Shown here: in pieces, positions 6,263 through 56,687 of the stretch
How the letters are laid out: each line of letters begins with the position of its first letter
Position numbering within the stretch: position 1 is the stretch's first letter
Source: Ostreococcus lucimarinus
Lineage: Eukaryota
Assembly: GCA_000092065.1 (NCBI GenBank)
Contig: CP000600.1
Length of the DNA: 64,000 nucleotides
Reading direction: 5' to 3' (one strand)
Program-made: the position numbers and the translations under genes
Notes under the pieces: model-generated
Databases searched by the model: none
What the model was told of the DNA's origin: nothing
Seen by the model: the letters and a program-made list of their open reading frames with translations, nothing else

Positions 6263-7699
6263 CTACGATATGAAGTCGCGTAAGACGTCGATGAACGCCT
6301 CTGGGCTTTCTTCGTGCGGCATGTGTCCACATTTAGGAAGGATGCGAAGCTCGCAGTTTAATAACTTGGCGAGCGTTCGCGAATTACTCGCGGGAACGAT
6401 GACGTCGTTCTCGCCGTGGACGATCAGAATCTTCGCACCGCTCTCGACGAGGGCGTTTACGGCGTCTTCGCGCTCTAACGTCGAGGGCTGCGTCGTCGCG
6501 CGAGCGCGCGCCATGGCGTCTCGCCAAATTTCGCGCGGCGAACTCGCGGCGACGACGGAGGCTAAGACGACGCGAAACATCCCTACGTCCCAGTCTCGCA
6601 CGACGGATGGTTTGCGATACCCATCGATCCAGTCGCTCGCCATCGCGTCGACTCGCGAAGGATCTATCGCGGCGCGCAAACCTTTCGTCCAAAACTCTTT
6701 GCTGCGCACGAGCTTGCGCAAGAGGAGGATGAGAAACGGCTTCACGGCGCACGTCAGGCACCACGCCGCCGTCGCCGCAGCCGCCCCGACGGCGGCGAAC
6801 GCGACGCGCACGAACGTCGGGAGCGAAAGAGCGGCGTCATCGCCGGCGTCGTTCTTCCTGAGCTTGCCGCCGATTATCGCCGGCGCGACGAGAACGACGT
6901 AGTCCACTCCACCCTGCGCCGCGGCGAGCGCCGCGCCGACGGCGCCTAAACTGTGACCCATCAGCGTGAGCGAACGAGCCGCGGCGTCGCCGCCGACCTC
7001 GCGCGCGATCGCTCGACACGCTTTCGCGTCGCTCGCGCGCGTGTACTTTTTCACGTCCCTCGGCCGCGCCGTCAATCCGAACCCGCACGAATCGTGCGCG
7101 ACGACTTCGGCGTCCAGCGCCTCGCTCGCGCGTCGCATCGTATCGCTCGTCGTCCACGACGACGCGTTCGCCCCGAATCCGTGCATGCACTCGATGAAAC
7201 GCTTCGCGTTCGCCCGTCTTGCGCGCTTATAGTGCACCTCCACGCCGTCGACGTCCAAAAACTCACCATCCGCGTCCGCCGCCTCTCGCGGCGACACGAG
7301 CGCCTCGGCGTACCGCCGCTCGACGAACACCGCGCGCGCGACCGCGTACGCCGCGATCGCGACCGCGACCGTCGCGAGCGGCGGCGTCGCCGCGCGCGCC
7401 GCGCTCGCCGCCGCGCCCGCCGCCGCCGCCGCCGCGCACGCGCACGCGCGCTCCGCCCTCGTGAGCTCGGGCGTCGCGTCCGAGTCCAAGTCGCGCGGCG
7501 CCGTCGTCGCGCCCGCGCGCGCGCGCGTCTCGCGCGTCTCGCGCGTCGCGCGCGGCGTCGAATTCGCGAAACGAAAAATCTGCGCGCGCGTCGACGTTCG
7601 CGTCGCCGCCGCCCGCGTCGTCGCGCGCGCGCGCGTCCGCGCGCGCGTCGTCGCCGCGACGCGCGTCCATCGCGCGCGCGCGCTTCGCGCGGCGTCCAT
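6263..7699 (-). CDS. Alpha/beta-hydrolase fold serine hydrolase (lipase/esterase-like), organelle-targeted with one TM
   Basis: Domain part of track ORF 6263..8011. GHSLGA nucleophile elbow. C-terminal HGENDVIVP...CGHMPHEE region typical of the fold. The start is reassigned to internal ATG 7699 (MDAARSARARW...). The region upstream is RARA low complexity and overlaps the HAD gene start. Confidence 0.75.
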   Translation of the reverse strand: MDAARSARARWTRVAATTRARTRARATTRAAATRTSTRAQIFRFANSTPRATRETRETRARAGATTAPRDLDSDATPELTRAERACACAAAAAAGAAASAARAATPPLATVAVAIAAYAVARAVFVERRYAEALVSPREAADADGEFLDVDGVEVHYKRARRANAKRFIECMHGFGANASSWTTSDTMRRASEALDAEVVAHDSCGFGLTARPRDVKKYTRASDAKACRAIAREVGGDAAARSLTLMGHSLGAVGAALAAAQGGVDYVVLVAPAIIGGKLRKNDAGDDAALSLPTFVRVAFAAVGAAAATAAWCLTCAVKPFLILLLRKLVRSKEFWTKGLRAAIDPSRVDAMASDWIDGYRKPSVVRDWDVGMFRVVLASVVAASSPREIWRDAMARARATTQPSTLEREDAVNALVESGAKILIVHGENDVIVPASNSRTLAKLLNCELRILPKCGHMPHEESPEAFIDVLRDFIS

Positions 7700-7739
7700 C
7701 GCGCGCGCGCGACGCGCTCTGCCGCACTCGACGACGCGC

Positions 7740-8732
7740 ATGGCGACCGCTCGAATCGCGCGCGTCGCGCCCGCGCGCGCCGACGCGCGCGCGAGGCGCG
7801 CGCGAGGCGCGCGCGCGTCGTCGACCGCGCCGTCGACGCCCGCGCGCGCGACGCGCCGACGCGCCGAGGCGCCGAGGCGCGACGAGAGGCTCGAGGTCAT
7901 CACGTTTGACCTCGACGACACGCTCTGGCCGACGACGCCCGTGGTGAACGCGGCGAACGAGGCGCTGATCGAGTGGTGCTCGGCGCGATTGGGAGGGCGG
8001 TTCCCGCGCACGGCGCGCGTGCACGCGACGATGAAACGGATCCGCGAGCAGCGGGAGTGCGAGGCGGCGGCGCGAGGGACGACGGCGGAACCGATGTCGT
8101 ACGCGGCGATACGAATCGCGGGAGCGACGCGGGCGGCGATCGAGTGCGGGATACCGGAGAGCGATGCGGTGGCGACGGTGGCGCGGGGGTATCACCTGGC
8201 GTGGATACCGATGCGGAACGCGATGGCGCGGGAGTTGGTGTATCCGGGCGCGGCGGAGGCGCTGCGAGCGATTCGCGAGCGCCATCCGGGGGTGGCCGTG
8301 GGATCGATCACGAATGGATTCGGCAGCGCCGCGGGCGCGGGGTTGGGAGAGTTTTTTGATTTTGAAATCTCCGCCGAGGCGCTGATCGATGAACACATGG
8401 TGCACGGAGAGATGGCGAGGAAGCCGAACGCGTACCCGTTTCAGCTCGCGATGGGCATCGCGATCGCGGATCATGGGTATTCGGGCGACGCCGATTCGTG
8501 GACGCACGTCGGCGACGATGTTCTGAACGATTGTTACTGCGCGAAACAGTTCGACTTCAAGACGGTGCACGTGTGCGATCCGACGACGAAACCGTACGAG
8601 AGCGGAGGGGGGGCGCCTTACGCGGAAAAGTCGCTTCGAGGAGGGGTCGAGGCGAACAGCGACGCGGTCGTGGACGGCGTCATCTCGCACGTGCGCGAAC
8701 TCCCCGAGCTCCTCGATCGATGGTACGTGTAG
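7740..8732 (+). CDS. HAD-superfamily (haloacid dehalogenase-like) hydrolase, organelle-targeted
   Basis: ITFDLDDTLW (DxDxT motif I) plus downstream HAD motifs. Start reassigned to ATG 7740 (MATARIARVAPA..., R/A/S-rich presequence). The track ORF N-extension starts with GTG. TGTAA polyA-signal-like motif sits 26 nt after the stop. Confidence 0.8.
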   Translation: MATARIARVAPARADARARRARGARASSTAPSTPARATRRRAEAPRRDERLEVITFDLDDTLWPTTPVVNAANEALIEWCSARLGGRFPRTARVHATMKRIREQRECEAAARGTTAEPMSYAAIRIAGATRAAIECGIPESDAVATVARGYHLAWIPMRNAMARELVYPGAAEALRAIRERHPGVAVGSITNGFGSAAGAGLGEFFDFEISAEALIDEHMVHGEMARKPNAYPFQLAMGIAIADHGYSGDADSWTHVGDDVLNDCYCAKQFDFKTVHVCDPTTKPYESGGGAPYAEKSLRGGVEANSDAVVDGVISHVRELPELLDRWYV

Positions 8733-18222: not shown

Positions 18223-19080
18223 CTATCTATTACCGACCGGCTTGCTCCCCGCGAACCCCACGCCTTTGGCCTCGGTCAAATCCTCGGGCAACGCGAAGAT
18301 CGAGTTCTTCTGAATGCCCTTCTTCCCCTTCTTCAATCCTTTGCTTTGGAAATTTTGCCAACTGCTCGCCTTTTGGTTTTGCTCGGCGCTTATCTCTTGC
18401 TGCCGCTGCTTATACTTGAACGTCTTCAACTTTTTCCGCTTCAACTCCCGCGTCTCCGAGTCATCCCCGGGCTTAATCTCCAAATTCTTCGGCGGCTCTT
18501 TCCGCACGAACTCCGTCTTTCGCGTCAACTCCACGCGTCTCGGTTCCGGCACGCCGCGATACACCTCTCTCGGCGGCGGCGGCGGCGGCGCCTTCGCCTT
18601 CGTCTTCGCCTGACCCCCGATGTCTATCCTCACATCGCTCGCCTTCACCGCGACTCGCGTGTGGCTCTCCGTCAGGTACACGTCCAGCGTACCGTCGTCC
18701 ATCGCTCGCACGCACCGTCCCCTCCGCCACGCGCCCTCGGCGTCGAGCGCGAGCACGTCCCGTCCCGCGAACGTCCCTCCCAGCGTCGTCGTCGTCGTCG
18801 CCGTCGCCGCCGTCGCGCCTCGCGCGTCGTTCGCGCCGTCACCCGCGCCTAACTCGTCGTCGTCGACGTCGTCCCGCGCCGCGAGCGTCGTCGCCAGGAC
18901 GTCGCGCGTGATTTCAATGACATCCTCGAGCGAATCCTTCAAATCGATCAATTCCTCGTCCCCCGGCGCGTCCGCGAGCGACGCCTCGACGTCCGCGAGC
19001 GAGCGCTCGTACTCATCGAGCTTGGCGCGCAGCTCGTCCGCGGTCTGCGGCGCGTCGTCGTCGTCGGCGGCGTCGGACAT
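18223..19080 (-). CDS. Splicing factor SPF30 / SMNDC1-like (Tudor domain protein)
   Basis: From internal ATG 19080: MSDAADDDDAPQTADELRAKLDEYERSLADVEASL...LIDLKDSLEDVIEITRDVL matches the SPF30 N-terminal helix. Tudor-like block GRDVLALDAEGAWRRGRCVRAMDDGTLDVYL. Lys-rich tail ending KNSIFALPED...GVGFAGSKPVGNR, as in SPF30. The upstream part of the track ORF is S-rich low complexity. Confidence 0.7.
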   Translation of the reverse strand: MSDAADDDDAPQTADELRAKLDEYERSLADVEASLADAPGDEELIDLKDSLEDVIEITRDVLATTLAARDDVDDDELGAGDGANDARGATAATATTTTTLGGTFAGRDVLALDAEGAWRRGRCVRAMDDGTLDVYLTESHTRVAVKASDVRIDIGGQAKTKAKAPPPPPPREVYRGVPEPRRVELTRKTEFVRKEPPKNLEIKPGDDSETRELKRKKLKTFKYKQRQQEISAEQNQKASSWQNFQSKGLKKGKKGIQKNSIFALPEDLTEAKGVGFAGSKPVGNR

Positions 19081-19120
19081 GACGCGGGGCGATGTGACGC
19101 GGCGGCGGCACTTCGTCGCG

Positions 19121-20434
19121 ATGGCGACGCGCGCGATCGCGCCGTCGCTCGCGCGCGCGACGGCGACGCGCGCGCGCGATGTCGCGGATCGCGCGCGCGC
19201 GCGCGCCGGGGACTCGGCGCGCGCGACGGCGACGCGCGGGAAGGGCGCCGCGCGCGCGATGGCGGCGGCGGCGCGACGACGCGCGGTGACGCCGCGCGCG
19301 CGCGCGAGCGACGCGAACGAGGACGAGGACGAGGACGAAGGGCCGGATAAAGATCTCGCGGACGCGTTCTTCGCGCAGATGCCGCGCGAGAACGAGGCGG
19401 AGGACGGCGCGCGGGGGGACGAGGACGCGCGCGACTTCGACGACGACGACGACGACGACGAAAACGTCGAGGTGCTGCCGTACATCGGCGGTGAGCTCCT
19501 GAAACCGGACCCGCCGGGACATAAGTCAGGGTACGCCGCCATCGTCGGACGACCGAACGCGGGGAAGAGCACGCTGATGAATGATTTGGTCGGGACGAAG
19601 CTGAGCATCGTGACGTACAAGCCGCAGACGACGCGGCATCGGATTTTGGGCATCCTGAGCGACGAGAACTCGCAGATGGTGCTTCTGGACACGCCGGGGG
19701 TGATGGTGGAGGAGTTTAATAAGCTGGATGGGATGATGCTGAAGAGCGTGCGGAATTCGATGGCGAACGCGGATGTGTTGTTTTACATCGTGGACGCGGC
19801 GCGGGATCCGTACGGGGCGTGGGAAGGTTTGGCGCCGAAGAAGGGTAAGCGCGTGCCGACGGCGTTGATTTTGAACAAATGTGACATGGTTGGCGATCGT
19901 GAGCGGATCATGGAGTTGATTGAGTACTTTCAAGCGCAAGAGGCGATCGACGAGGTGTTGCCGATTTCGGCGCTCAACTCAACGGGGACGCGCAACGTCA
20001 AAGAGTGGGCGCTGGAACGTTTACCGCTCGGCCCGACGCTTTACCCCAAAGACGCCATCAGCGAGCACCCCGAACGATTCTTCATCGCCGAAATCATCCG
20101 CGAGAAGATATTTTTGCAGTACAAACAAGAGGTGCCGTACAGCACGCAAGTTTGGATCGAGACGCACAAGGAACGCGACGGCGTGAAGAAGGATCTCATC
20201 CTCGCCAAAGTCTTCGTCGAGCGTCAATCTCAAATCGGCATCATCGTCGGCCAAGGCGGGGCGGCGATGAAAAAACTTTCGTCCAGCGCGCGCGCGGACA
20301 TTGAGAAGTTTTTAGGCCGCCCGGTATTTTTAGACATCCAAGTCAAAGTCCGCGACGGCTGGCGCGAAGACGACCGCAGCCTCGAAGACCTCGGCCTGGA
20401 CGACCCCAATAGATTAGAGAGCCCATCCATCTAG
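19121..20434 (+). CDS. GTPase Era (organellar), GTP-binding domain plus C-terminal KH domain
   Basis: G1 GRPNAGKST, G3 DTPG, G4 NKCD. KH region VFVERQSQIGIIVGQGGAAMKKL. Start at ATG 19121 (MATRAIAPSLARATA, presequence-like). The ORF-track extension overlaps the SPF30 coding region on the other strand. Confidence 0.9.
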   Translation: MATRAIAPSLARATATRARDVADRARARAGDSARATATRGKGAARAMAAAARRRAVTPRARASDANEDEDEDEGPDKDLADAFFAQMPRENEAEDGARGDEDARDFDDDDDDDENVEVLPYIGGELLKPDPPGHKSGYAAIVGRPNAGKSTLMNDLVGTKLSIVTYKPQTTRHRILGILSDENSQMVLLDTPGVMVEEFNKLDGMMLKSVRNSMANADVLFYIVDAARDPYGAWEGLAPKKGKRVPTALILNKCDMVGDRERIMELIEYFQAQEAIDEVLPISALNSTGTRNVKEWALERLPLGPTLYPKDAISEHPERFFIAEIIREKIFLQYKQEVPYSTQVWIETHKERDGVKKDLILAKVFVERQSQIGIIVGQGGAAMKKLSSSARADIEKFLGRPVFLDIQVKVRDGWREDDRSLEDLGLDDPNRLESPSI

Positions 20435-44259: not shown

Positions 44260-46218
44260 ATGTCGGAAGAACCGAAAGAAATCACAGGCGCCACTGCGCT
44301 CTGCAAAGTCGCCGCGGCCGGAGGCGTCGAGGTGTGCTTCGCTAATCCCGGGACTTCAGAGATGCACGTCGTCGGCGCGCTGGCCGAGTGCGCGGATATT
44401 CGCAGCGTCCTCGTTCTCCACGAAAACGTCGCCACGGGCGCGGCGGACGGGTACTCTCGCGTCAAGCGCGACGTCAACCGCGATCGAAACGCGATGGCGA
44501 TGACTCTTTTGCATCTCGCCCCTGGCTTGATGAACGGACTTTCGAACTTGCACAACGCGAGCCGCGGCCGGAGCTCCATTCTCAACGTCGTCGGCGAGAT
44601 GAGCACGTTTCATCGAGGTAACGAAGCCCTGTTGGAGAACGATATCGAGTCGCTCGCGCGGACGGTGTCGACGAAATACGTGCACACGAGTGCGGCGGTG
44701 GATGCGATCGCGAGTGATGCTGCGGACGCGATCGAAGCGGCGCTTCGACACCGCGGCGTTGCCACGCAAATCGTGCCGCACGATTTGACTTGGTCTCGCG
44801 TGTTGGACAGTGGCAGACTGAGCGACGCCATCGCGCGCGCCGAAAACGTTCGCAATAGAAGAGACGGCGCCGAAGACGTGGTCGTCACTGATGCCGTTCG
44901 CGCTTTTCTGCGTGAAATGCTCGCTCGCGCGAAACCGTTGGCGCGCGGCGAAGTTCTCTTTTACATCGGAGGCGATGCGTGCGGCGAGGAAGAACTGCGG
45001 ATCGTCGGCGACGTCGCGGAAGCGCTCGGTGCGGACGTGGTGTGTGAGTGCTTCTTTTCTTGCATCGAACGCGGTGGCGATATGCCCAAAGTGCAGCGCG
45101 CGCCTTACTTTCCGAAAGACGCGGCGAACGCGTTCGCCAAGTACAAAGTCGTCATTTTTCTCGACGTGCCGCGACCGCCAACGGCGATGTTCGGCTACCG
45201 CGATTCTCCGACGAAGTTGTTCGCACAGAACGACGACGACATGTGGTTTGTCGATCCTCCCGGAAACGCGATGATGCTTGACGTCTTGCGCGCGCTCGCG
45301 ATGGAAGTGAATATCGGCGTTCAATGCGCGCCGAAGATGTCAGACGTCGCCGCCGTCGTTGAGCACGTCGTTTCCGAAGCGCTCGCGAAATCGGTCGAGG
45401 ACAAGGAGGATAGTTTGTGGAACTACGGGATGACGAGCACGAAGGCAGTGAGCGTGCACGACAAACTGTGCAAAGAGTTCGACATCAAGTTACAATCGAC
45501 GATTGTGTTCAATCACAATTCGATCAACGCGCTCACGAACGCCGTCGCGACAAAGCTCGGCATCGCAGACGAATCACCGAAGACTGCGATCGCACCGAAG
45601 GACGTAGACGCCAGCCCAAAGTCCACGCTCGAGGGTGAATACGTCCAAGTGCGATGCGATTCACCGACGGGCGCCTTGAACGGTGCCAAGGTGTGTCGAA
45701 TCATAGCCGGCATGCAACCAGCCGGCGCGATCGTCGTGGACGAATCGCTCACCTCTGGATCGACGTACTGGAAGGACAGCGAATCGTCGGCGCGTTTTAC
45801 GCACATGACGCTCACCGGCGGTTCCATCGGTTTCGCGAACGCCGCGGCGGTCGGGGTCGCTTTGGCCGCGCCCGAGAGACAAACGATCGCGCTCGTCGGC
45901 GACGGTTCGGCTCAATACACCGTCCAGGCCCTTTGGACGCAGGCGCGCGAGAAACTCAACGTCGTCACCGTGATCATGAACAACTCCAAGTATCAAATTC
46001 TCCGCGTCGAGTGCGCTATCCAGGGCGTTCGCGCGTCCGGAGGCGCGTGCGACTCGCTCACGAAACTCGACGACCCCTCGATCGACTGGTGCAAACTCGC
46101 CGAAGGGTACGGTGTTCGCGGCGTCCGCACCACTACCTGCGAGGAGTTTGCAGACGCGTTCGCGCGCGCGCTCGACGCCGACGGTCCGACGCTTATCGAT
46201 GCTGTTTTAGAGGCGTGA
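44260..46218 (+). CDS. Thiamine-diphosphate-dependent enzyme of the acetolactate-synthase/ILVBL-like family with an embedded phosphopantetheine-attachment (acyl-carrier-like) domain
   Basis: TPP_enzyme_N (EITGATALCKVAAAGGVEVCFANPG...HENVATGAADGYSR), central domain (VLFYIGGDACGEEELRIVGDVAEALGADVV), and C-terminal PP domain with GDG-x24-NN (LVGDGSAQYTVQALWTQAREKLNVVTVIMNN). Inserted between middle and PP domains is a stretch about 70 aa long that matches the PP-binding profile (DSLWNYGMTSTKAVSVHDKLCKEFDIKLQSTIVFNHNSINALTNAV). True ATG at 44260, only 27 nt after the preceding gene's stop. Confidence 0.8.
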   Translation: MSEEPKEITGATALCKVAAAGGVEVCFANPGTSEMHVVGALAECADIRSVLVLHENVATGAADGYSRVKRDVNRDRNAMAMTLLHLAPGLMNGLSNLHNASRGRSSILNVVGEMSTFHRGNEALLENDIESLARTVSTKYVHTSAAVDAIASDAADAIEAALRHRGVATQIVPHDLTWSRVLDSGRLSDAIARAENVRNRRDGAEDVVVTDAVRAFLREMLARAKPLARGEVLFYIGGDACGEEELRIVGDVAEALGADVVCECFFSCIERGGDMPKVQRAPYFPKDAANAFAKYKVVIFLDVPRPPTAMFGYRDSPTKLFAQNDDDMWFVDPPGNAMMLDVLRALAMEVNIGVQCAPKMSDVAAVVEHVVSEALAKSVEDKEDSLWNYGMTSTKAVSVHDKLCKEFDIKLQSTIVFNHNSINALTNAVATKLGIADESPKTAIAPKDVDASPKSTLEGEYVQVRCDSPTGALNGAKVCRIIAGMQPAGAIVVDESLTSGSTYWKDSESSARFTHMTLTGGSIGFANAAAVGVALAAPERQTIALVGDGSAQYTVQALWTQAREKLNVVTVIMNNSKYQILRVECAIQGVRASGGACDSLTKLDDPSIDWCKLAEGYGVRGVRTTTCEEFADAFARALDADGPTLIDAVLEA

Positions 46219-46267
46219 GTTCTAGAATCGCTCGCTCGCTCACGTACATTTCATGTTCATTTTACAA

Positions 46268-47572
46268 TCAACTCTCCGTCTCAACGTGCGCCAACGCCGC
46301 GGCTCTTCGCTCTTCCGTCAACGCGTGCGAGGCAAACTTTTTGTGTCGCGAGAGCGCGTCGCTTTCTTCTCGCACGCGCGCGTCTAGAACGCTCACCGCG
46401 CGCAGTCCCCGCTTCAACGCCTCTGCGATGTCTTCGATCGTCGCCGACGATTCGTCGCCCTCCGAGAAACGCACGACGCCGTCGACGCCGTCGATGCGCG
46501 CGGCTATTTCGCCTCGCACAATCATACCGTACAACACTCTTTCCGCGGCTTCGACGTCTGAGAACCCGATCGCGCTCGCGAAATCCCCCAAGCGAAGCGT
46601 CGAGTACGTCTTCGCGAGCGAACGCGCTTTCGCCGCGACGGCTCGATCGCGCACGAGCGCGACCAATCCGGCGTTTCCGTCGAGCTCGTACGTCGCCTCG
46701 TGTCGCTCGACGACGTCGGCCAGCTCCTTCGCGGCGTCGCGTTTCTTCGCAGCCGCGAGCAGCGACGCGTACGCGTCGCACTCGCGCGACGTGGAGTACT
46801 TCTTCGCCGGCGACGAGAACGTCGACGCGTCGGCGACGGCGTCCGCCAACAGCGTCGCCAGCGCGTACTTTTTATACGCCGCCACCGCGATGGCGCTGAG
46901 CGCCGTCGCGGGCGCGCTCAGCGCGTCTTGAAACCACCGCGCGGCTTCGGGATATCGTCGCAACGCCAAGAGCGCGCGACCGCCGTAGTAGCACCGCAGC
47001 AAAAAGTCCGTCGCGTCCAGCGCCGGGGCGACGTCCATCGCCGGCGCGGCGAGAATCCCATCGCTCGCCGCGAGCGCGTCGTACGCCTTCAGCTTCAAGC
47101 ACACTCGCAAGTAACACGCATCCTGCGGCGTGATCACCGCCTCGCTCTGCGCGCGCGCCATCGCGACGTCGCGCGCGCGTCCGAGCGCCTCCGCCACCGT
47201 CCGCCCGTCCGCCCCGCGCGCGCGCCCTCGACACCAAAGCTCGCTCAAACCGCGACACACGTCCGCGAAATCCCACGCGTCGTCGTCTTCGCCCTCGCCC
47301 TCCTCGATCGACGCCTCGACGCACGCGCGCACCGCGCGCGCCGCGAATGCCTCGTCGTCCGCCTCGTCGTCCTCGTCGCCCCGTCCCTCTCGCGCCCTCC
47401 CCACCGCCTCCCGCGCGTACGCCGCGAGCGCCGCGCGCGCGAACCCACGCCTCTCTACCTCCGTCGCGCCCTCCAGCTCGCTCGCGTCGTCCACGAACGT
47501 CCGCCACCGCGTCGCCGCGTCGCCGCGTCTCTTCTCGCCGCGTCCCATCGCGTCCCGCGTCCACGCGTCCAT
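46268..47572 (-). CDS. CSN3: COP9 signalosome subunit 3 (CSN3, PCI domain)
   Basis: DFLLRCYYGGRALLALRRYPEAARWFQDALSAPATALSAIAVAAYKKYALATLL parallels the CSN3 FLCYYYYGGMIY...[20 protein letters not shown] block. C-terminal PCI/winged helix (LRLGDFASAIGFSDVEAAERVLYGMIVRGEIAARIDGVDGVVRF). Start at internal ATG (M82 of the track ORF). Confidence 0.8.
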   Translation of the reverse strand: MDAWTRDAMGRGEKRRGDAATRWRTFVDDASELEGATEVERRGFARAALAAYAREAVGRAREGRGDEDDEADDEAFAARAVRACVEASIEEGEGEDDDAWDFADVCRGLSELWCRGRARGADGRTVAEALGRARDVAMARAQSEAVITPQDACYLRVCLKLKAYDALAASDGILAAPAMDVAPALDATDFLLRCYYGGRALLALRRYPEAARWFQDALSAPATALSAIAVAAYKKYALATLLADAVADASTFSSPAKKYSTSRECDAYASLLAAAKKRDAAKELADVVERHEATYELDGNAGLVALVRDRAVAAKARSLAKTYSTLRLGDFASAIGFSDVEAAERVLYGMIVRGEIAARIDGVDGVVRFSEGDESSATIEDIAEALKRGLRAVSVLDARVREESDALSRHKKFASHALTEERRAAALAHVETES

Positions 47573-49539: not shown

Positions 49540-50724
49540 TCAACGCTTCGAGTACGTCGGCGGGTTGCCCTGCGTGACGCGACAATACTTCAGTAACTGC
49601 GCCTCGATGTTTTGCCCCGGCCGCGCCTGGCCTTTCAAATACGGATCGAGCTCGCTCAGCGTCCATCGCGGTTTCACCGCCCAGAGCGCGGCGAATCGAT
49701 CGCCCGGCTCCCTCGGTAAATCGCTCGCGATGAGCGTGCGCACGAACGCCTCCGCCGCGCGCTCGGGTCGATCGATGAGCGCCAAGCCCGAGAGATACTC
49801 TTCCTTGGCCTCGACGTGCCCGAGATTGAACTCGCTCAGCTTTTCGCGCCACTGGTCCATCATTTCCACCAGACGCCACGCCTTCAATCCAGCGCCGTCG
49901 CGCAGCACGCGCTGCGCCAACGCTCGACACACGGCTTCTTCGTCTAGCGCCCACGTGGCGTCGACATCGTGTTTCGTCGCGAACGCGTGAAGCGTGTTTC
50001 TCGCCATCTCCGGCGCGAACCCGTCGCTCGCCATCGCGTCCACGACGGCGTCCGTCGGCAACGCGCTCGTCGACCATCCGTTCCCGAACGCGCTCGCCGT
50101 CATCATCGCCAACGCATGTAACCTGTACTCCGCGTCCACGCCGCGCCACTTCCCATCGATCTCGATGGCGACGATTTCCTCTTGCAAGCACTTTAAAATC
50201 TCCAACTCGCTCGCCTGCACGCGCGCGTTCAACTCGTCGAACCCGAATCCCACGCCCTCGCCCTCGCCCTCGTCCGCGTCCATCGCCTCCGCCGTCCCGG
50301 CGTACGCCACGCTCGCCATCATCTCTCGCAACCGATCCAACCGCGGCGCGATCTCCGTCAAATCCAAATGCGAGCTCGTCTGCGCTCGAACCGTCGCGCG
50401 CCGCGGCCCGTCCTCCTCCTCCTCCATCGCCTCCGTCTCGTCCTCCTCGCCCCCCAACGCCGGTCCGACGATCAGGCACTGATTCGACGATTCCACGCGC
50501 GTCACCTGATACGTCTTCGACCGCGTGCACACCACGGCGACGTCGTCGGGCTCGCCCTTGAACGCGATGACGCCGTCGTTTGAAAGAATCTCGCTCAAGA
50601 TTTCCTCGTCAACCTCCAGCAGCTCGACGCGTTCGCTCGCGTAGTCGGCGCCGCGGACGAGATCGAACTCTTCGCCGTCCTCCGCGACGAAGGCGCCGTT
50701 CGCGACGGCGTCGCGGCGCGACAT
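49540..50724 (-). CDS. DSCC1: Sister chromatid cohesion protein DCC1 homologue (CTF18-RFC subunit)
   Basis: N-terminal block LVRGADYASERVELLEVDEEILSEIL...GVIAFKGEPDDVAVVCTRSKTYQVTRVESSNQCLIV follows the DCC1 pattern (LLELD..L..L, V.CS..KTY.L....SN.LL). Full-length 394 aa with true ATG. Confidence 0.7.
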   Translation of the reverse strand: MSRRDAVANGAFVAEDGEEFDLVRGADYASERVELLEVDEEILSEILSNDGVIAFKGEPDDVAVVCTRSKTYQVTRVESSNQCLIVGPALGGEEDETEAMEEEEDGPRRATVRAQTSSHLDLTEIAPRLDRLREMMASVAYAGTAEAMDADEGEGEGVGFGFDELNARVQASELEILKCLQEEIVAIEIDGKWRGVDAEYRLHALAMMTASAFGNGWSTSALPTDAVVDAMASDGFAPEMARNTLHAFATKHDVDATWALDEEAVCRALAQRVLRDGAGLKAWRLVEMMDQWREKLSEFNLGHVEAKEEYLSGLALIDRPERAAEAFVRTLIASDLPREPGDRFAALWAVKPRWTLSELDPYLKGQARPGQNIEAQLLKYCRVTQGNPPTYSKR

Positions 50725-50763
50725 GGGTCGAGAAATGGCGTCAGAGCGCGACGCGCGGTCGAC

Positions 50764-52631
50764 ATGGGCGCGACCGATGGGACGAGCGCGCGCGAGGCGC
50801 GTCGAAAGGCGCGCGAGTTGGAGGAGGGTCGAAAGGTGCGCGCGCGCTCGCGCGCCGAGCGCGTCGACGCGTCGCGCGAGCGACGCGCGGACGACGCGCG
50901 AGGACGATTTCGTCGCGCGCCGCCCGCCATTCCTCGCGACATTCGTTTCGTCGCGCCTCGACGCGACGCGACGCGCGCGACGGCGGTGGACTGACGGCGA
51001 CGACGCGTTCGCGCGCGCTCCAGGCTGGGTTGATCCCGCACGAGATCGATGAGGACGGGAACGCGATCAACCCGCACATTCCTCAATTCATGGCGGCGGC
51101 GCCGTGGTACCTGAAGCAAGACGGGCCGGGATTGAAACATCAAAAGGCGCCGAAAAAAGCCGAAGAGAGCGCGGAGTGGTACAAGAGAGGCGTGACGACG
51201 ACGAAGGCGACGAAATTTCGTAAGGGGGCGTGCGAGAATTGCGGAGCGATGACGCACAAGAAGAAGGATTGCATGGAGCGGCCGCGCGCGAGAGGCGCGA
51301 GCAAGACGCAAAAGGACATCGCGGCGGACGAGTACGTGCAACCGGAGTTGAAGCTTGGGTTTGAGAGTAAGCGCGATCGGTATAACGGATTCGATGTGGA
51401 TGATTACGTCAAGGTGGTGGAGCGATACGAGGCGGCGGACGCGATGAAGCAAAAATTGGCCAAGCAAAAAGAGTTGGAACGCGCGTTTCGGCGGGCGAAT
51501 AAAAAGGAGGACGACGCGGCGAGCGACTCGGATTCGGACGATACGAGCTCCGACGACGACGACGACGACGACGCGAAGGTTGCGGATAAGGCGGCGACGG
51601 GGTTTGCAAACATCAAACGCGCGGTGCGCGCGCCCGGAGGGGGCGCTTCCGGCACGGTGCGTAACTTGCGTCTTCGCGAAGACACGGCGAAATATTTGCG
51701 CAACCTGGATGTGGATTCGGCGTACTACGACCCAAAGACGCGCTCGATGCGCGAGAATCCGACGCCGAACGCCGATCCCAAAGACAACTTCTTCCGCGGT
51801 GATAACGCGGCGCGAAATGACGGGCAAGTGGTGGAGTTTGAGCGTTTGAATCGTCACGCATGGGAGCAGGCGGAAGCCGGCGGCGCGAGCGCCATTCACA
51901 TGCAAGGCGCGCCGTCGCAAGCCGAGGCGCTGTACAAGCAATTCAAAGAAAAGAAGGAAAAGCTCGCGGGAATGAATAAAAAGAACATCATGGAAAAGTA
52001 CGGCGACGCGAGCGCGGGCAAAGAGCTTCCCGACGGTTTGGCGCTCGGTCAAACGGAGCAATACGTCGAGTACGACCGCGCGGGCCGTCTCATCAAGGGA
52101 ACCGAAAAAGCCACGGTGAAGAGTTGTTACGAGGAGGATGTCCTTTTGCAAAATCACACCAAGGTTTGGGGCTCGTACTGGAACGCCGGTCAGTGGGGTT
52201 ACGCGTGTTGTCAAAGCATGGTGAAGAACTCGTATTGCACGGGCGAGCGCGGCGTCGAAGCCGCGCTCGCGAGCGAGCAACTCATGGTGGACAACATGGA
52301 GAACAAGCGCGCGATGGACGAGGCGAACGAAGCGCGAGCGAAGTCGCAGCTCAACGCGACGACGAAACCGAGCGATCTGTGGGGTGGTGATGTCAAGGAT
52401 GACGTCGAGATCGATCCTCAAAAGCTCCTCGAAGCCTTGAAGCGGCAAGACGAACGCGAGGAAGCGCTCAAGCGCGGCGGCGACGGGAAGAACAAGCGCG
52501 GGTACAACGTCACGCACGATTCGCAAGTCACGGCGGAAGACATGGAGGCGTATAGGATGAAAAAGCGCGCATTCGAGGACCCGATGAAAAAAGCGTCGGG
52601 CGCGGGGACCGATGGTTACGATCTAGTGTAG
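50764..52631 (+). CDS. SLU7: Pre-mRNA splicing factor SLU7; two exons (50764..50835, 51024..52631)
   Basis: CCHC knuckle KGACENCGAMTHKKKDCMERPR. Long collinear identity with SLU7 (VRNLRLREDTAKYLRNLDVDSAYYDPKTRSMRENP, WGSYWNAGQWGYACCQSMVKNSYCTGE, MEAYRMKKRAF). Exon 1 encodes MGATDGTSAREARRKARELEEGRK (the SLU7 EDWRKKKELEEQRKL motif). It is spliced via aag|GTGCGC ... gtggACTGACggcgacgacgcg ... ctcCAG to AGLIPHEIDEDGNAINPHIPQF. The track ORF 5' extension overlaps DCC1 and is not coding. Confidence 0.9.
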
Positions 52632-52668
52632 AAATTGTATAGCAAGTTTGAGCGATTCGCCCTTAAAG

Positions 52669-53865
52669 TCACGCCGCGACGGCGATCTCGTCCGTGAGAT
52701 TGCTTTCGACCGCGCTCACTTTCTCAATCCATCCATCTAAACGCCCGGCGAGTTCGGCGATTTGCGAGCGTAACAAGACGCGAGGTTGGACCCACGTCAC
52801 GATGACCTTGCTCTCGACCTGGTCGATGATGCCTTCGATCAAGTGTACGCTCAGCGCCTTCATGAGCAAGTACTCCACGCCGTCCGTGGTCAGCTTCGTC
52901 TTCACCGCGATGTCGCTCAAAGAAATCTCTCGATGCTCGGCGGGAAGTTTGAATATGATTTGCAACAGGGACAAGATCGTAATCTTCTCCCGAAGCCTGC
53001 GCTCGTTCGCCACGAGCGCGGGTTGCGCGTTCAAAGCCGCGGCGTGCTTGACGCACAACTGATCGTACTCGTGTAAATCGCCCTCGTTGAACGCCTTGAC
53101 GACGTCCATCAACCACGCGAAAGGCCCATCATTCAAACTCTCCACTATCGGATGCGCGAGAAGCTCGGCGAAATTGTACACGTTCTCCCCGAGCAAAGCG
53201 GCGAGACACAAGTCGACGCTCAACGCCGCGCGCGTCTCCGCGGGCAACATTTCGCACGACACGTACGCCAAATACAACATGCCCGACTTGTAAAACTCGG
53301 CGTAATTTTCCCGCACCTTGTAATACCGACTCGCGACGTAATGATACGCCGCGCTGACGCTCGGATCCGGCGCCGGCAACGCCTCCAACGCTTCTTTATC
53401 GCCCTCCGTCACCGCGCGTTTGGCGTACTCTAAATCCCCCGCCACCAATCTCAACAGCGTCACGTGCGCCGCGACGTACACCCCCGGTTCCCTCGCATCG
53501 TCCCCGTGCGCCGCCACCAACCTCGCGCTCGTCTCCGTCAGGAATTCCACCGCTTCTTCCCCGGTCAACGCGTCGCTCACCGCCACCGCCACGTGCGCCG
53601 TCTTCAACGGATTAAACCTCGTCTCCGCCTCCCTCACCACGCCGTCGTACATCCCTCGCAGGCCTCCCGGGAGAAGCGCCACGCGCGCGTTCATCGGCGC
53701 CGCCACCGCGCGCTCGATCGCCAGCGTCAGCTCGTGCCACAGCTTTTTCGTTCGCAAATCGCCGATCTCGATCAACAGCTCGCGCGTCTCGTCGTCGATC
53801 GCGCGCGCGGCGTCGATCGCGGCGTCCAGGTACGCCGTCCCGGCGTCGGGCGCCGCGGCGGGCAT
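52669..53865 (-). CDS. PSMD13: 26S proteasome regulatory subunit Rpn9 / PSMD13 (PCI domain)
   Basis: From ATG 53865 (MPAAAPDAG...). LRTKKLWHELTL, NFAELLAHPIVESL, ANERRLREKITILSLLQIIF, VEYLLMKALSVHLIEGIIDQVESKVIVTWVQPRVL all parallel PSMD13. Confidence 0.85.
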   Translation of the reverse strand: MPAAAPDAGTAYLDAAIDAARAIDDETRELLIEIGDLRTKKLWHELTLAIERAVAAPMNARVALLPGGLRGMYDGVVREAETRFNPLKTAHVAVAVSDALTGEEAVEFLTETSARLVAAHGDDAREPGVYVAAHVTLLRLVAGDLEYAKRAVTEGDKEALEALPAPDPSVSAAYHYVASRYYKVRENYAEFYKSGMLYLAYVSCEMLPAETRAALSVDLCLAALLGENVYNFAELLAHPIVESLNDGPFAWLMDVVKAFNEGDLHEYDQLCVKHAAALNAQPALVANERRLREKITILSLLQIIFKLPAEHREISLSDIAVKTKLTTDGVEYLLMKALSVHLIEGIIDQVESKVIVTWVQPRVLLRSQIAELAGRLDGWIEKVSAVESNLTDEIAVAA

Positions 53866-53998: not shown

Positions 53999-54646
53999 AT
54001 GCTCGCGATCGCTCGATCGCGCGCGACGGCGGCGCTTCGCGCGTCGCGCGTCGCGCGCGCGATCGAGCGCGAGGGCGGCGCGGCGACGGCGACGGCGACG
54101 GCGACGAAGGCGACGGCGCGCGCGCGATCGAGCGACGGCGCGGACGCGGACGCGGACGCGACGGCGTCGACGTCGACGACGACGACGACGACGCGCGCGC
54201 GCGGACGCGCGCGCGCGGAGGACGGCGCGGACGAGACGGCGTCGAGGCTGGCGAGCGCGGCGAGCGGGACGCGCGAGGTCGAGCGACCGGCGCGGTTGAG
54301 TCGAGATCGGTTGTATTATCCGGGACAGAACTACGAGCCGAGCGATTTAGCGGCGCAGACGGCGAGAACGGCGCCGGTGCGACACACGGCGGCGGGGAAG
54401 ACGGTGAAGAATCCGATGCGAGGGAAGGCGGTGGAGGCGACGCTGCTCGAACGCGCGGCGTACGAAGACGCGAGGTTTTTGACGCAGTTCGTGAGCGATA
54501 CGGGGAAGATTTACCCGAAGCGACGGTTAGGGGTGAGCGCGAAGGCGCAGCGGAAGATCGCGCGCGCGATCAAAACGGCGCGGCAGATGGGGATTTTGCC
54601 GTACACGTCTCGTCTTCCGCAGTTTCAACGCAGCCGCGAGACGTGA
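53999..54646 (+). CDS. Organellar ribosomal protein S18 (bS18 family)
   Basis: C-terminal YPKRRLGVSAKAQRKIARAIKTARQMGILPYT is the bS18 signature. Long A/T/R/D-rich presequence with (GCGACG)n coding repeats. Start at ATG 53999, downstream of the Rpn9 start on the opposite strand. Confidence 0.75.
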   Translation: MLAIARSRATAALRASRVARAIEREGGAATATATATKATARARSSDGADADADATASTSTTTTTTRARGRARAEDGADETASRLASAASGTREVERPARLSRDRLYYPGQNYEPSDLAAQTARTAPVRHTAAGKTVKNPMRGKAVEATLLERAAYEDARFLTQFVSDTGKIYPKRRLGVSAKAQRKIARAIKTARQMGILPYTSRLPQFQRSRET

Positions 54647-54699
54647 CGCGACGCGAAGCGACGTACGACGTAGCCTAATGCGTGTCACAACACGACGCG

Positions 54700-55146
54700 C
54701 TACACCGCGCGCTCCGCTAACTCTAACTCTAACAGTTCCCTGATCCCTCGCTCGATCTCCGCGAGCGACGTCTCGACTTCTCGCAGCGCGTTCGCCGCCT
54801 CGACCTCTCGCGTCGCCGCGTCCCGCCTCGCGTCTCGCGCCCTCCCCAGTCCCTCGTCCACCGTCATCTCCGCCATGAACCCCAGTCCCACGTCCACGAA
54901 CACCGTGCGCGCGTCGTGCGCCCGCGCGCGCGCGCGTATCTCCCCTCCCACGTCCACCAGCGCGTCGAAACCGCCGCCGTCGCCGTCCTCTCGCAACCGC
55001 GACAGCTTCGCCTCGAGCGCCTCCCACGCCTCGCGGTCCTCGCGCGCGTCCTCGAGCGCGCGCGCGCGCGTCGCGCGCTCCGGCACCAGCGTCTCGCGCG
55101 CGACCGCCGCGCGCGCGACCGCGTCGCCGCGCGCGCGCGACGTCAT
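54700..55146 (-). CDS. UXT: Prefoldin-like protein UXT homologue (alpha-class prefoldin coiled-coil)
   Basis: [60 protein letters not shown] parallels UXT ([25 protein letters not shown]...LLEGLRELQGL). Start at internal ATG 55146 (MTSRARGD). The upstream part of the track ORF is S/R-rich. Confidence 0.6.
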   Translation of the reverse strand: MTSRARGDAVARAAVARETLVPERATRARALEDAREDREAWEALEAKLSRLREDGDGGGFDALVDVGGEIRARARAHDARTVFVDVGLGFMAEMTVDEGLGRARDARRDAATREVEAANALREVETSLAEIERGIRELLELELAERAV

Positions 55147-55174
55147 TCGTCGTCGCGTCGAGGACTGACGCCCC

Positions 55175-55708
55175 ATGCTCGCGCGCCGCGACGCCCTCCT
55201 GAGCGCCGCGCTGAGCGCCGGCGCGCTCGCGCGACCGCGACGCGCGCGCGCGGCGCCGGCGCCGACGTTCGCGCCGACCAGGGACGGCGTGCGGTTCCGC
55301 GACGCGCGCGTCGGCGACGGACCCGAGGTGTTCGCGCACGACGCCGTCGTCATCCTCTTCACCGCGCGCGTCCTGCCGAGCGACGACGGCGCGCTCGATC
55401 GGCGGCGCGCGGGGGACACGTTCGATCCGTTCGTCGTCGGCGGCGCGGGCGCGAGCGCGTCGAAGGGATTCAAGCTGGAGATTGGGAGCGCGACGAATGA
55501 CATTCCGGAGGGCTGGGCGCGCGCGTTCGAGGGCGACGGCGACGCGATGCCGCGGATGCGAATCGGTGGGAAACGAATCGTGCGGATACCGCCGAGCTTG
55601 GCGTACGGCGAGCGAGGGCATCACTGTCGAGACGGCGTGCGAGGGGCGTGCGAGGTGAACCCGGGGGAGAGCGTGGAGATTGACTTTGAGATTCTTCGGT
55701 ACACGTGA
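55175..55708 (+). CDS. FKBP-type peptidyl-prolyl cis-trans isomerase with twin-arginine (lumenal) presequence
   Basis: MLARRDALLSAALSAGALARPRRARAAPA presequence, then FKBP fold (GVRFRDARVGDGPEVFAHDAVVILFTARV...DTFDPFVVGGAG...IPEGWARAFEGD...MRIGGKRIVRIPPSLAYGERG...ESVEIDFEILRY). Confidence 0.8.
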   Translation: MLARRDALLSAALSAGALARPRRARAAPAPTFAPTRDGVRFRDARVGDGPEVFAHDAVVILFTARVLPSDDGALDRRRAGDTFDPFVVGGAGASASKGFKLEIGSATNDIPEGWARAFEGDGDAMPRMRIGGKRIVRIPPSLAYGERGHHCRDGVRGACEVNPGESVEIDFEILRYT

Positions 55709-55721
55709 CGCGTCATCGTCG

Positions 55722-56687
55722 CTATCGATGCTCGTCGTCGGAGACGGTCGTCGCGGCCTGGGCGAGGGCTTTCTTCTTTAGCATCCATTTCGGCGCGTCG
55801 TCGCGGCGGGGCGACAACGCGCTTACCGAAGCCGGCGCGACGCCTTTCGCCTTGGCCTCGAACACGCCGTCGTCCTTCGCGGCGGCGCCGATGGCGACGA
55901 TGTACGATTTCTTCTCGTCTCCGGACGGAAGCGCGGTGAATATCTGCGCGAAGACGACGACGTTCGGGTCCTTCAAATTCACCGAGACTTCGCACTCGGC
56001 GTCGGCGTCCTTGAACGCTCGCTCGCACGCCTTCGCAATCTTCGGCACCATCACCGCGCGCCCGTGCGCGACGTCGGACGCGTCCGTGTCTTCCTCGCTA
56101 ACGCTAGCGGTGCTATCCACCCTCTTGTTATACACCACCGCGAACGCGATCGATTTCGATCTCGCGTCTTCGCTCCGCGCGCGCGTCTCCCGCACGACTC
56201 TCTCCACGCACGCTCGCATCCCGTCCTCGTCCCCGACCTCGAACGCGCCGTCGATCGGGTACATCTTGTATAAAAATTCCGACCCCTCGTCCTTCCCTCC
56301 TCGCACGTCGTCGAGCGCTCGTTTCACCGTCGCCGTCGCCGTCCGCGCCGAGCCGCCGCCGCTCGCCGCCATCAACAGCGCCCCCCTCGCCGGCAGTTTC
56401 ACCGGCGCGTACGCCGAGTCCTCCCCCAGCATCCGTCGCAACGCCGCCGTCGCGCTCTTCTCTCTCGATTGCCGGCACGTCGCGAACACCGCTCGGACGG
56501 CGCCGTCGCCGTCGCCGCGCTCGAGCAGCGTCGCCCGCAGCGTCGCGTACGCGAACCTCCGAAACTCGCCCGCGCCGCGCGCGCGCTTCGCGTCGCCGCC
56601 GTCGTCGTCGTCGGCGTCGTCGCGCGGCGCTCGGCGTCGCATCTGCGCCTCGGCGGCGTCGCGCAGGCGCGCCGACGGCGACGACAT
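55722..56687 (-). CDS. THUMPD1: THUMP domain protein (THUMPD1/Tan1-like)
   Basis: From ATG 56687: MSSPSARLRDAAEAQMRRRAPRDDADDDDGGDAKRARGAGEFRRF... N-terminal basic/acidic region as in THUMPD1. THUMP-type core (IAFAVVYNKRVDSTASVSEE...VSVNLKDPNVVVFAQIFTALP...YIVAIGAA). Confidence 0.7.
   Translation of the reverse strand: MSSPSARLRDAAEAQMRRRAPRDDADDDDGGDAKRARGAGEFRRFAYATLRATLLERGDGDGAVRAVFATCRQSREKSATAALRRMLGEDSAYAPVKLPARGALLMAASGGGSARTATATVKRALDDVRGGKDEGSEFLYKMYPIDGAFEVGDEDGMRACVERVVRETRARSEDARSKSIAFAVVYNKRVDSTASVSEEDTDASDVAHGRAVMVPKIAKACERAFKDADAECEVSVNLKDPNVVVFAQIFTALPSGDEKKSYIVAIGAAAKDDGVFEAKAKGVAPASVSALSPRRDDAPKWMLKKKALAQAATTVSDDEHR

Follow-up and report, generated by a model that had tools for sequence, protein, structure and literature searches.

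Four head-to-head pairs of protein-coding genes, lying on opposite strands with adjacent 5' ends, have validated start codons that are only 28–40 nt apart in a 64,000-nucleotide stretch of Ostreococcus lucimarinus CCE9901 nuclear DNA (hereafter the window). Read directly from the sequence, the gap is 39 nt between DCC1 and SLU7 (CAT at 50722–50724, ATG at 50764–50766), 40 nt between an alpha/beta hydrolase (ABH) and a HAD hydrolase (7697–7699 and 7740), 40 nt between SPF30 and Era (19078–19080 and 19121), and 28 nt between UXT and an FKBP (55144–55146 and 55175). These values are those of the original prediction, which had also put other divergent pairs at 57–133 bp; a check of these spacers gave 57 nt (Band7/MT16, 28646/28704), 109, 125, and 133 nt. 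Its central argument holds as well, namely that such a gap between validated ATGs cannot fit two core promoters and ordinary 5' UTRs; the spacers are too short for the signals of the flanking genes. They have a GC content of 0.71–0.82, no TATA-like run was seen on reading them, and no tRNA or non-coding RNA genes were found in or near them. We hold it slightly likelier than the opposite that each pair shares a TATA-less, GC-rich bidirectional initiation zone, giving leaders of about 11–30 nt, and that this arrangement is a product of genome compaction.

This reading depends on the start codons, which are supported by the positions of protein domains, by the conservation of N-termini in other Ostreococcus, and by spacer indels that are not multiples of three. 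Five of the eight starts match the GenBank models exactly. In the first pair, DCC1 (49540..50724, minus strand; start at 50724; 394 aa, identical to XP_001422665.1) carries the Pfam Dcc1 domain at residues 34–363, into which a start at the next in-frame ATG (50427) would cut, and its N-terminal length is kept in L003, L004, and L044. The spacer (50725..50763; 39 nt, GC-rich, free of TATA-like sequence) shows a 1-nt indel in the close relative L008 and is therefore non-coding. On the plus strand, SLU7 starts with an exon of 24 codons (50764..50835; MGATDGTSAREARRKARELEEGRK), homologous to the N-termini of the transcript-derived P0305 and P0307 (MMETSP transcriptome labels; presumably Micromonas). 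This exon and the GT donor right after it are kept in L003, L004, L043, and L044. It is followed by a 188-nt GT..AG intron (50836..51023, plus strand), with an ACTGAC branch-like site near 50990, and by a second exon (51024..52631, plus strand) that holds the Pfam Slu7 domain and the NPHIPQF motif in frame. The spliced product (559 aa) is identical to XP_001422502.1. An exact search of JGI metagenome contigs did not find the junction of the two exons, and two Logan contigs containing DCC1 match the window exactly, with no intron removed, hence uninformative on transcripts. The transcript-like contig L045 (MMETSP transcriptome label), which we take to be from Micromonas, has a leader of 180 nt; it has no bearing on the pair because DCC1 and SLU7 are not adjacent in M. 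pusilla.

The alpha/beta hydrolase (6263..7699, minus strand; start at 7699; 478 aa, with Pfam Abhydrolase matches) aligns from residue 1 with its counterpart in L020. Relative to this same sequence, the stretch from 7699 to the upstream in-frame ATG at 7741 has indels of −2 and +5 nt, and so the region between them is non-coding; these indels rule out the upstream in-frame ATGs at 7741 and 7900. Our ABH model differs from the NCBI one. Across the 40-nt spacer (7700..7739), the HAD hydrolase (7740..8732, plus strand; 330 aa, identical to XP_001422483.1; Pfam HAD) has its next ATG (8031) within the HAD domain. SPF30 (18223..19080, minus strand; 285 aa, identical to XP_001422658.1) has no Pfam or PDB match and owes its name solely to JGI/UniRef, and its N-terminus (MSDA..) is kept in O. 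tauri. Beyond the next 40-nt spacer (19081..19120) lies a chloroplast-type Era GTPase (19121..20434, plus strand; 437 aa; Pfam MMR_HSR1 and KH_2), whose homologues are chloroplast ERA proteins of 405–457 aa. Its N-terminus, M[A/S]TRA (MATRA here), is kept in O. tauri and L014, and the N-termini of orthologues rule out the upstream in-frame ATGs at 19079, 18917, and 18620. The UXT/prefoldin-like gene (54700..55146, minus strand; 148 aa; Pfam Prefoldin) encodes a product that is called identically in more than 100 contigs and aligns with orthologues of similar N-terminal length, which rule out the upstream in-frame ATG at 55176. Past the 28-nt spacer (55147..55174), the FKBP (55175..55708, plus strand; 177 aa, identical to XP_001422504.1; Pfam FKBP_C) has its frame shut just upstream by a TGA at 55166–55168. 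The ACTGAC branch-like sequence before its ATG hinted at a hidden upstream exon; this was discarded because a twin-arginine motif, aligned with orthologues, directly follows the ATG.

It is thus highly improbable that one partner per pair is mis-annotated, through a later methionine or an unseen upstream exon, and that the true gaps are larger. What speaks for it is that the frames stay open far upstream in all genes of the eight except DCC1, HAD, and FKBP, that our models of ABH, Era, and UXT depart from the NCBI ones, that O. lucimarinus FKBP is without the long presequence found in L003 and L044, and that some automatic callers choose the in-frame Met 47 of Era (391-aa form). Against this, in DCC1, SLU7, ABH, HAD, UXT, and FKBP a start at the next in-frame ATG would remove part of a conserved domain or motif, and in FKBP the twin-arginine motif right after the ATG is combined with a stop codon 7 nt upstream. 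SPF30 and Era are kept across species from their first residues, beside spacers that vary in length and sequence. The original prediction had left later start codons as a way out of the narrow gaps: the sequence excludes it in seven of the eight genes, which have no usable downstream ATG, and for Era the N-terminus kept in O. tauri and L014 makes it unlikely. Nor do the coding sequences overlap: close relatives show spacer indels of 1, 2, and 5 nt, which mark the spacers as non-coding, and a 2-nt coding overlap through the upstream in-frame ATGs at 7741, 19079, and 55176 is unsupported. We also compared the eight start contexts (CGACCCATGT, GTCGACATGG, CGCGCGATGG, ACGCGCATGG, CGCGTCATGT, GTCGCGATGG, CGACGAATGA, and CGCCCCATGC) with TISU, the translation initiator of short 5' UTRs (SAASATGGCGGC, i.e., SAAS upstream of ATGGCGGC). 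None matches, and none has AA at −3/−2.

The recurrence of a spacing of about 40 bp, singled out in the original prediction as curious, is unsupported as a feature in its own right. Across other Ostreococcus lineages the orthologous spacers span 34–185 nt: 34, 36, 40, 80, and 185 nt for DCC1/SLU7; 38, 43, 59, 71, and 81 nt for ABH/HAD; 89 nt (O. tauri) and 78 nt (L014) for SPF30/Era; and 62, 80, and 87 nt for UXT/FKBP. Having three of nine spacers on two adjacent values (39/40/40) has a post hoc probability of about 0.05–0.07, and this coincidence does not clearly go beyond chance. We therefore see little prospect that the spacing is a selected, fixed-length bidirectional promoter cassette and not a by-product of compaction. 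A cassette would explain why three of the four pairs have 39–40 nt and why 8 of 18 curated orthologous spacers fall within 34–43 nt while none falls between 44 and 58 nt. Yet identical gene pairs have spacers of 59–185 nt in sister lineages, the 39/40/40 cluster reaches only the post hoc probability given above, no spacer-specific motif was found across the four spacers, and the pile-up is equally well explained by a lower floor arising from two minimal leaders. The 7-mer CGCGACG, common to all four spacers, was rejected as such a motif: it has 261 copies in the window, being among the commonest GC-rich words of the genome, and a common 7-mer also turns up in 3.5% of random quartets matched for GC. 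The window shows no enrichment of TCGAGAAA (2 found vs 4.9 expected), a sequence that three spacers from different species contain. Near-identical strains vary too little to gauge the constraint on the spacers.

An unbiased scan of 5-mers on the sense strand, at positions −40..−1 of 105 Ostreococcus start codons, returned CGTCA as the top word (4.5-fold, p = 9e-10), then CGGCA, GTCAG, and GCACT. The A of CGTCA is followed by a non-A and then by A/T. These words, CGTCA(B)(W), GTCAG, and GCACT, fit the published metazoan initiators, BBCA+1BW in human and TCA+1GTY in Drosophila (PMC5580651); the difference is that the Ostreococcus motif is known from its resemblance and its position relative to the ATG. 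Matches to BBCA+1BW peak at −30..−11 and occur in 59 of the 105 genes (21% expected), and in genes without a close divergent partner the signal is strand-specific. Each of the eight genes of the four pairs has exactly one match, at −11 to −30 (chance P~4e-6). Having first been noticed in the window, the motif held up on a set of 73 genes of other species, whose starts are mostly automatic gene calls or our own curation and many of which are mutual orthologues. Part of the enrichment may reflect non-coding base composition, and instead of an initiator the motif may represent an element of the 5' UTR or one for a transcription factor. The ABH-side copy is not kept in the closest relative, L020, and the DCC1 copy is weak.

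The arrangement of the candidate sites is back-to-back, 6–15 bp apart, in three pairs. In the DCC1/SLU7 spacer, the candidate SLU7 initiator CGTCAGA (50739..50745, plus strand) has its A+1 at 50743, for a predicted leader of 21 nt, and the weaker candidate for DCC1, GCCATT (50734..50739, minus strand), has its A+1 at 50736, for a leader of 12 nt. No BBCABW match other than GCCATT, which L008 keeps, occurs within 45 nt 5' of the DCC1 ATG. The spacer also contains an upstream ATG (50735..50737, plus strand; G at −3 and G at +4) that is out of frame with SLU7 and kept in L008; its frame extends 289 nt beyond the SLU7 ATG, so that an SLU7 mRNA including it would be poorly translated. The candidate SLU7 start site lies 3' of this ATG. 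The same holds in the SPF30/Era spacer, where the candidate Era site, GGCACT (19107–19112, plus strand; A+1 at 19110), is downstream of an upstream ATG and faces away from the SPF30 site, GTCACA (19093–19098, minus strand; A+1 at 19095). In the ABH/HAD spacer, initiator-like motifs abut on the two strands: GGCAGA for ABH (7718–7723, minus strand; A+1 at 7720), not kept in L020, and CGCACT for HAD (7723–7728, plus strand; A+1 at 7726), kept in L020. The candidate UXT/FKBP sites are crossed by ~22 nt. The initiator-like GTCAGT of UXT (55164–55169, minus strand; A+1 at 55166, leader 20 nt) is inside the spacer, and the candidate FKBP initiator GTCATT (55142..55147, plus strand; A+1 at 55145, leader 30 nt) overlaps the UXT start codon; if both were used, the 5' ends would overlap by ~22 nt in antisense.

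Of the two arrangements put forward in the original prediction, a shared bidirectional zone with short leaders is thus favoured by the initiator-like motifs in all eight genes, over starts inside the partner gene; only UXT/FKBP looks crossed. Under the shared-zone reading, compaction would have whittled the spacers down to about the shortest working length, and each of them would make up one bidirectional initiation zone with the opening tens of bases of the two adjoining coding sequences. Pol II would initiate from a pair of initiator-like sites (CGTCA / BBCA+1BW) that face outward and lie 6–15 bp apart, producing leaders of ~11–30 nt, or, at the crossed sites of UXT/FKBP, 5' ends overlapping by ~22 nt. 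Any promoter contacts that one gene makes farther upstream would have to fall within its partner's leader and coding sequence, and the two initiation complexes, sharing the same DNA, could not assemble simultaneously. The geometry, the start codons, the non-coding spacers, and the enrichment of the motif by position and strand are observed; that the motif marks transcription start sites is our inference, and so are the lengths of the leaders and the exclusion of one complex by the other. Levels of 5mCG in O. tauri reach their minimum, and those of 6mA their maximum, right at the ATG (bioRxiv 10.64898/2026.07.10.737489), a pattern compatible with start sites nearby.

The alternative is that the main start sites lie within the partner's coding sequence, with each promoter sitting inside the other gene and with crossed transcripts whose 5' parts are antisense to one another over tens to hundreds of bases; we regard this as possible but rather unlikely. 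Longer overlapping leaders do occur in the genus, as trial RNA-seq assemblies of O. tauri join neighbouring transcripts through overlapping UTRs (PMC4378021). In O. lucimarinus, possible over-clustering was flagged for ~9% of the EST clusters and ascribed by the authors to overlapping transcription units on opposite strands, but only 26 clusters were borne out and the overlaps are mainly at 3' ends (PMC2367439). Within the window, the candidate FKBP initiator overlaps the UXT start codon, and a tandem pair with just 27 nt from stop to ATG (44232/44260) leaves a gap so short that signals must sit within neighbouring genes there. The first 150 nt of coding sequence contain one antisense ATG in divergent partners against six in tandem genes, as might follow from long overlapping leaders; this depletion is suggestive but not significant (p~0.06) and is confounded by a very high N-terminal GC content (0.78 vs 0.69), and we rejected it as a sign of such leaders. 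Starts within the partner would moreover burden both genes of the first pair with out-of-frame upstream AUGs whose frames pass the true start, two in SLU7 (−29 and −41) and one in DCC1 (−41), and the initiator-like motif peaks at −30..−11, not farther upstream. Returning to the shared zone, its extension to the genus is a more tentative proposal: Pol II of Ostreococcus would fire from paired outward-facing initiators separated by just a few base pairs, with a hard floor of ~30–40 nt between divergent ATGs and the remaining promoter information in the partner's coding sequence. This floor may be set by two minimal leaders of ~12–20 nt.

A region of 28–40 nt is shorter than the footprint of a single Pol II pre-initiation complex. 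Like the bidirectional promoters of animals and plants, whose transcription start sites are <1 kb apart, these loci have divergent genes around one GC-rich, TATA-less region, but here it is the start codons that are 28–40 nt apart, and the start sites must therefore be close together or crossed. Giardia, Trichomonas, and microsporidia have initiator-driven, short-leader mRNAs and no TATA box, and the likeness extends to an initiator-like CA+1 a few to tens of bases 5' of the ATG; the leaders predicted for Ostreococcus (11–30 nt) would be longer than those of the near-leaderless type in Giardia. In the compacted genomes of microsporidia and nucleomorphs, intergenic DNA is likewise so reduced that signals must lie in the neighbouring gene (Williams et al. 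2005, cited in PMC2367439). Those are parasites or endosymbiont remnants, with mostly read-through and 3' overlap, whereas Ostreococcus is free-living, the 5' ends are concerned, and the sequence favours non-overlapping back-to-back starts in three of the four pairs.

Short divergent gaps are the expected outcome of known genome compaction and are ordinary for O. lucimarinus. Small intergenic regions and bidirectional pairs are documented in Ostreococcus (PMC2367439, PMC4035068), 2288 head-to-head pairs were counted in O. tauri (PMC4035068), and overlapping UTRs and ESTs have been reported (PMC4378021, PMC2367439). The finding thus mainly restates published traits of the genus, in which intergenic regions are <200 bp, head-to-head pairs number in the thousands, and UTRs overlap. 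Piganeau et al. (2009), as cited in PMC2850359, inferred that Ostreococcus has fewer bidirectional regulatory elements than yeast. On the reading with short leaders and back-to-back initiators, the loci would be naturally occurring bidirectional promoters of minimal size (~40 bp); they would show how far a free-living cell can compress Pol II promoter architecture, and Ostreococcus engineering could use them as compact parts. Were the paired-initiator reading true, they would be among the smallest functional bidirectional Pol II promoters of free-living eukaryotes and a tractable minimal promoter for a transformable alga. The loci also matter for annotation: in this genus, promoter and leader signals have to be looked for in adjoining coding sequences as well as in the ~40 nt nearest the ATG. 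The functions joined in a pair look unrelated: cohesion and splicing (DCC1/SLU7), splicing and a chloroplast GTPase (SPF30/Era), prefoldin and FKBP. Convergent genes of the window are also closely packed, with stop codons 13–53 nt apart.

Direct reading of the sequence bears out the four head-to-head pairs at the positions originally predicted: the start codons of DCC1 (minus strand, 50724) and SLU7 (plus, 50764) are separated by a spacer of 39 nt, those of the alpha/beta hydrolase ABH (minus, 7699) and HAD (plus, 7740) by 40 nt, those of SPF30 (minus, 19080) and Era (plus, 19121) by 40 nt, and those of UXT (minus, 55146) and FKBP (plus, 55175) by 28 nt. The further divergent spacers of the original prediction were verified at 57, 109, 125, and 133 nt. 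Ten long open reading frames in the window encode proteins identical to GenBank models of O. lucimarinus CCE9901, so this is nuclear DNA, from a free-living eukaryote whose gene density is among the highest (52–71% GC, roughly 40 genes per 64 kb). Close head-to-head pairs are nothing unusual in this genome and have been documented before. Intergenic regions in Ostreococcus average less than 200 bp (PMC2367439, PMC2850359), and a count in O. tauri gave 2288 bidirectional pairs (PMC4035068). An earlier analysis of intergenic footprints took gene orientation into account (Piganeau et al. 2009, as cited in PMC2850359), and overlapping transcription is a textbook consequence of genome compaction (Williams et al. 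2005, as cited in PMC2367439).

Pfam matches identify Dcc1, Slu7, the alpha/beta hydrolase, HAD, Era (MMR_HSR1 and KH_2), the prefoldin-type UXT, and FKBP; the SPF30 label is based solely on JGI/UniRef names, and Pfam and PDB searches with this protein gave no match. The DCC1 and FKBP products are identical to XP_001422665.1 and XP_001422504.1, respectively. SLU7 comprises a 24-codon exon (50764–50835, plus), a 188-nt GT..AG intron (50836–51023), and a second exon from 51024; after splicing it encodes a 559-aa protein that equals XP_001422502.1, and its N-terminus (MSGAFKSREEHRRATELEEARK, then AGL...) matches two sequences with MMETSP transcriptome labels (P0305 and P0307), which we take to be from Micromonas. 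The intron lies after codon 24 in all Ostreococcus lineages examined (L003, L004, L043, L044) and keeps a branch-like site, GGACTGAC, about 30 nt before the acceptor, while the remainder is unalignable and variable in length.

The correctness of the start codons matters because most frames stay open far upstream in this GC-rich DNA; in-frame upstream ATGs occur for ABH (7741, 7900), Era (19079 and further), and UXT (55176). In DCC1, SLU7, ABH, HAD, UXT, and FKBP, a start at the next downstream in-frame ATG would truncate a conserved domain or motif. The closest relative at the ABH/HAD locus (L020) carries indels of −2 and +5 nt between 7699 and 7741, and a close relative at the DCC1/SLU7 locus (L008) a 1-nt indel within the spacer, which shows these spacers to be non-coding. 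Conservation of SPF30 (MSDA...) and of Era (M[A/S]TRA...) sets in at the very first residues in both O. tauri and a third lineage, where the intervening DNA differs in length and sequence. The N-terminal lengths of DCC1, UXT, and SLU7 exon 1 match in four other lineages, and GenBank has the same start for five of the eight genes (DCC1, SLU7, HAD, SPF30, FKBP). Taken together, these data essentially exclude the outcome against which the original prediction was set, a wider gap through a start at a later Met; Met47 of Era is the sole such alternative left, as a formal possibility.

Five of the eight start codons lie in a CATG palindrome (7739–7742, 19078–19081, 55174–55177, 50722–50725, 50763–50766), which places an ATG on the partner's strand too. 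Those at −42 of ABH, −42 of Era, and −30 of UXT are in frame with no intervening stop, so transcripts beginning further upstream would encode N-terminal extensions of 14, 14, and 10 residues, respectively. The reference models of UXT, ABH, and Era probably need correction: XP_001422667.1 is a 58-aa fragment of UXT, yet a conserved 148-aa prefoldin frame is present (54700–55146), and the 478-aa ABH (6263–7699) and 437-aa Era (19121–20434) products are identical to no NCBI O. lucimarinus model. The FKBP of O. lucimarinus starts directly at its twin-arginine/hydrophobic signal (MLARRDALLSAALSAGALA; 55142–55270), and its orthologues carry an additional Ser/Thr/Arg-rich presequence of about 47–51 residues (L003, 1477–2163; L044, 13475–14056) or 13 extra residues (L043). 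An in-frame TGA (55166–55168), 7 nt before the ATG, closes the FKBP frame, and past it lies a 97-codon in-frame, putatively transit-peptide-like frame antisense to UXT. The 28-nt spacer may be the outcome of a deletion that took the presequence away.

An unbiased 5-mer comparison covered 105 start codons of Ostreococcus (32 from the window, 73 from other species, many of the latter automatic gene calls or our own curation and many genes mutually orthologous), setting the 40 nt before each ATG on the sense strand against the flanks. CGTCA ranked first (4.5-fold, p=9e-10), ahead of CGGCA, GTCAG, and GCACT. After the A of CGTCA the next base is almost never A, and the one after that is A or T in 71%. 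These words fit the published initiator consensus (human BBCA+1BW, Drosophila TCA+1GTY; PMC5580651). When BBCABW is searched for as a pattern fixed beforehand, its A is most frequent at −30 to −11 (59 of 105 genes, 21% expected), and the matches are strongly strand-specific among genes lacking a close divergent partner (31 sense versus 7 antisense in −40 to −1). Words seen first in the window were later confirmed in the other species (CGTCA in 23 of 73 genes, 5.8 expected). Across Ostreococcus species (the window plus loci L003, L004, L013, L014, L043, L044, and L022–L031), the four words are enriched, strand- and position-specifically, 10–30 nt upstream of ATGs. Some of the enrichment comes from non-coding base composition, and the motif may not be an initiator but an element of the leader or one bound by a transcription factor. 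In the limited literature searched we found no description of such a motif or of start-site positions in Ostreococcus, an absence that carries little weight.

In each of the eight genes, BBCABW occurs once and only once within 45 nt before the ATG (chance about 4e-6). The candidate A+1 positions are 50743 for SLU7 (plus, −21 from the ATG), 50736 for DCC1 (minus, −12), 7720 for ABH (minus, −21), 7726 for HAD (plus, −14), 19095 for SPF30 (minus, −15), 19110 for Era (plus, −11), 55166 for UXT (minus, −20), and 55145 for FKBP (plus, −30); L020 does not keep the motif on the ABH side, and that of DCC1 is weak. In three pairs the sites face outward, 6–15 bp apart. Those of UXT and FKBP are crossed, the FKBP site overlapping the UXT start codon, and would give an antisense overlap of about 22 nt.

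The argument that 28–40 nt leave no room for two separate promoters and leaders is sound. Of the arrangements it allowed, a shared zone from which each pair would be transcribed with short leaders is favoured over starts crossed into the partner by the initiator-like motifs and the upstream AUGs: out-of-frame AUGs at −29 and −41 of SLU7 and −41 of DCC1 would enter the transcript only if transcription began further upstream, which supports the candidate sites independently. A short upstream ATG of Era (−29) is likewise upstream of its candidate site. The 5mCG minimum and 6mA maximum at the ATG itself in O. tauri (bioRxiv 10.64898/2026.07.10.737489) are compatible with starts nearby. Longer, crossing leaders stay a serious rival because overlapping UTRs are reported from O. 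tauri RNA-seq (PMC4378021) and, among the EST clusters of O. lucimarinus, about 9% were marked as possible cases of over-clustering from opposite-strand transcription units, although only 26 were borne out (PMC2367439). Antisense ATGs appear depleted in partner coding regions, a suggestive signal that is not significant and is confounded by GC content. A more novel reading, in which paired initiators make up a minimal bidirectional promoter and its two minimal leaders would fix the lower limit of its length, is less likely than not.

The recurrence of about 40 bp, which had seemed curious, is not supported as a feature. The pairs are kept at orthologous loci of other Ostreococcus lineages and their spacing is not: 40, 34, 36, 80, and 185 nt for DCC1/SLU7; 43, 38, 59, 71, and 81 for ABH/HAD; 78 and 89 (O. 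tauri) for SPF30/Era; 62, 80, and 87 for UXT/FKBP. For three spacers out of nine to take two neighbouring values (39/40/40), the post hoc P is ~0.05–0.07 under simple nulls. Lengths pile up at 34–43 nt with none below 28, which looks like a floor and not a set length; such a floor, or chance, most likely accounts for the repeated value of 40 nt. In Micromonas pusilla, DCC1 does not adjoin SLU7. ABH and HAD are adjacent in all lineages examined except one Ostreococcus lineage, where they are split by a small gene for a SnoaL-like protein of 121 aa (Pfam SnoaL_2, E=3e-9; L033, 2418–2718; L034, 2332–2811). The divergent order of ABH and HAD is kept in the far more distant relatives L040 and L042 (44–48% identity), where HAD appears intron-bearing, and the two may be functionally linked.

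The same squeeze is seen elsewhere in the window, in a 27-nt stop-to-ATG gap and in convergent stop codons 13–53 nt apart. The former separates a TPR/FKBP-like gene (43333–44232, XP_001422499.1) from its tandem neighbour (44260–46218, XP_001422500.1); either the first transcript's 3′ end would overlap the second's promoter and leader, or the two would be co-transcribed. The convergent gaps measure 37 nt (52631–52669), 53 nt (54646–54700), 49 nt (46218–46268), and 13 nt (55708–55722), the last presuming that the 321-aa frame 55722–56687, which has no Pfam match, is a real gene; at such distances the 3′ UTRs of these four pairs would have to overlap. In the Pex2/Pex12 RING frame (41765–42796, minus), the Pfam match begins at open-frame residue 16 and the first ATG (42427) lies 123 codons further in, so a 5′ exon or intron of this gene has probably gone unrecognised.
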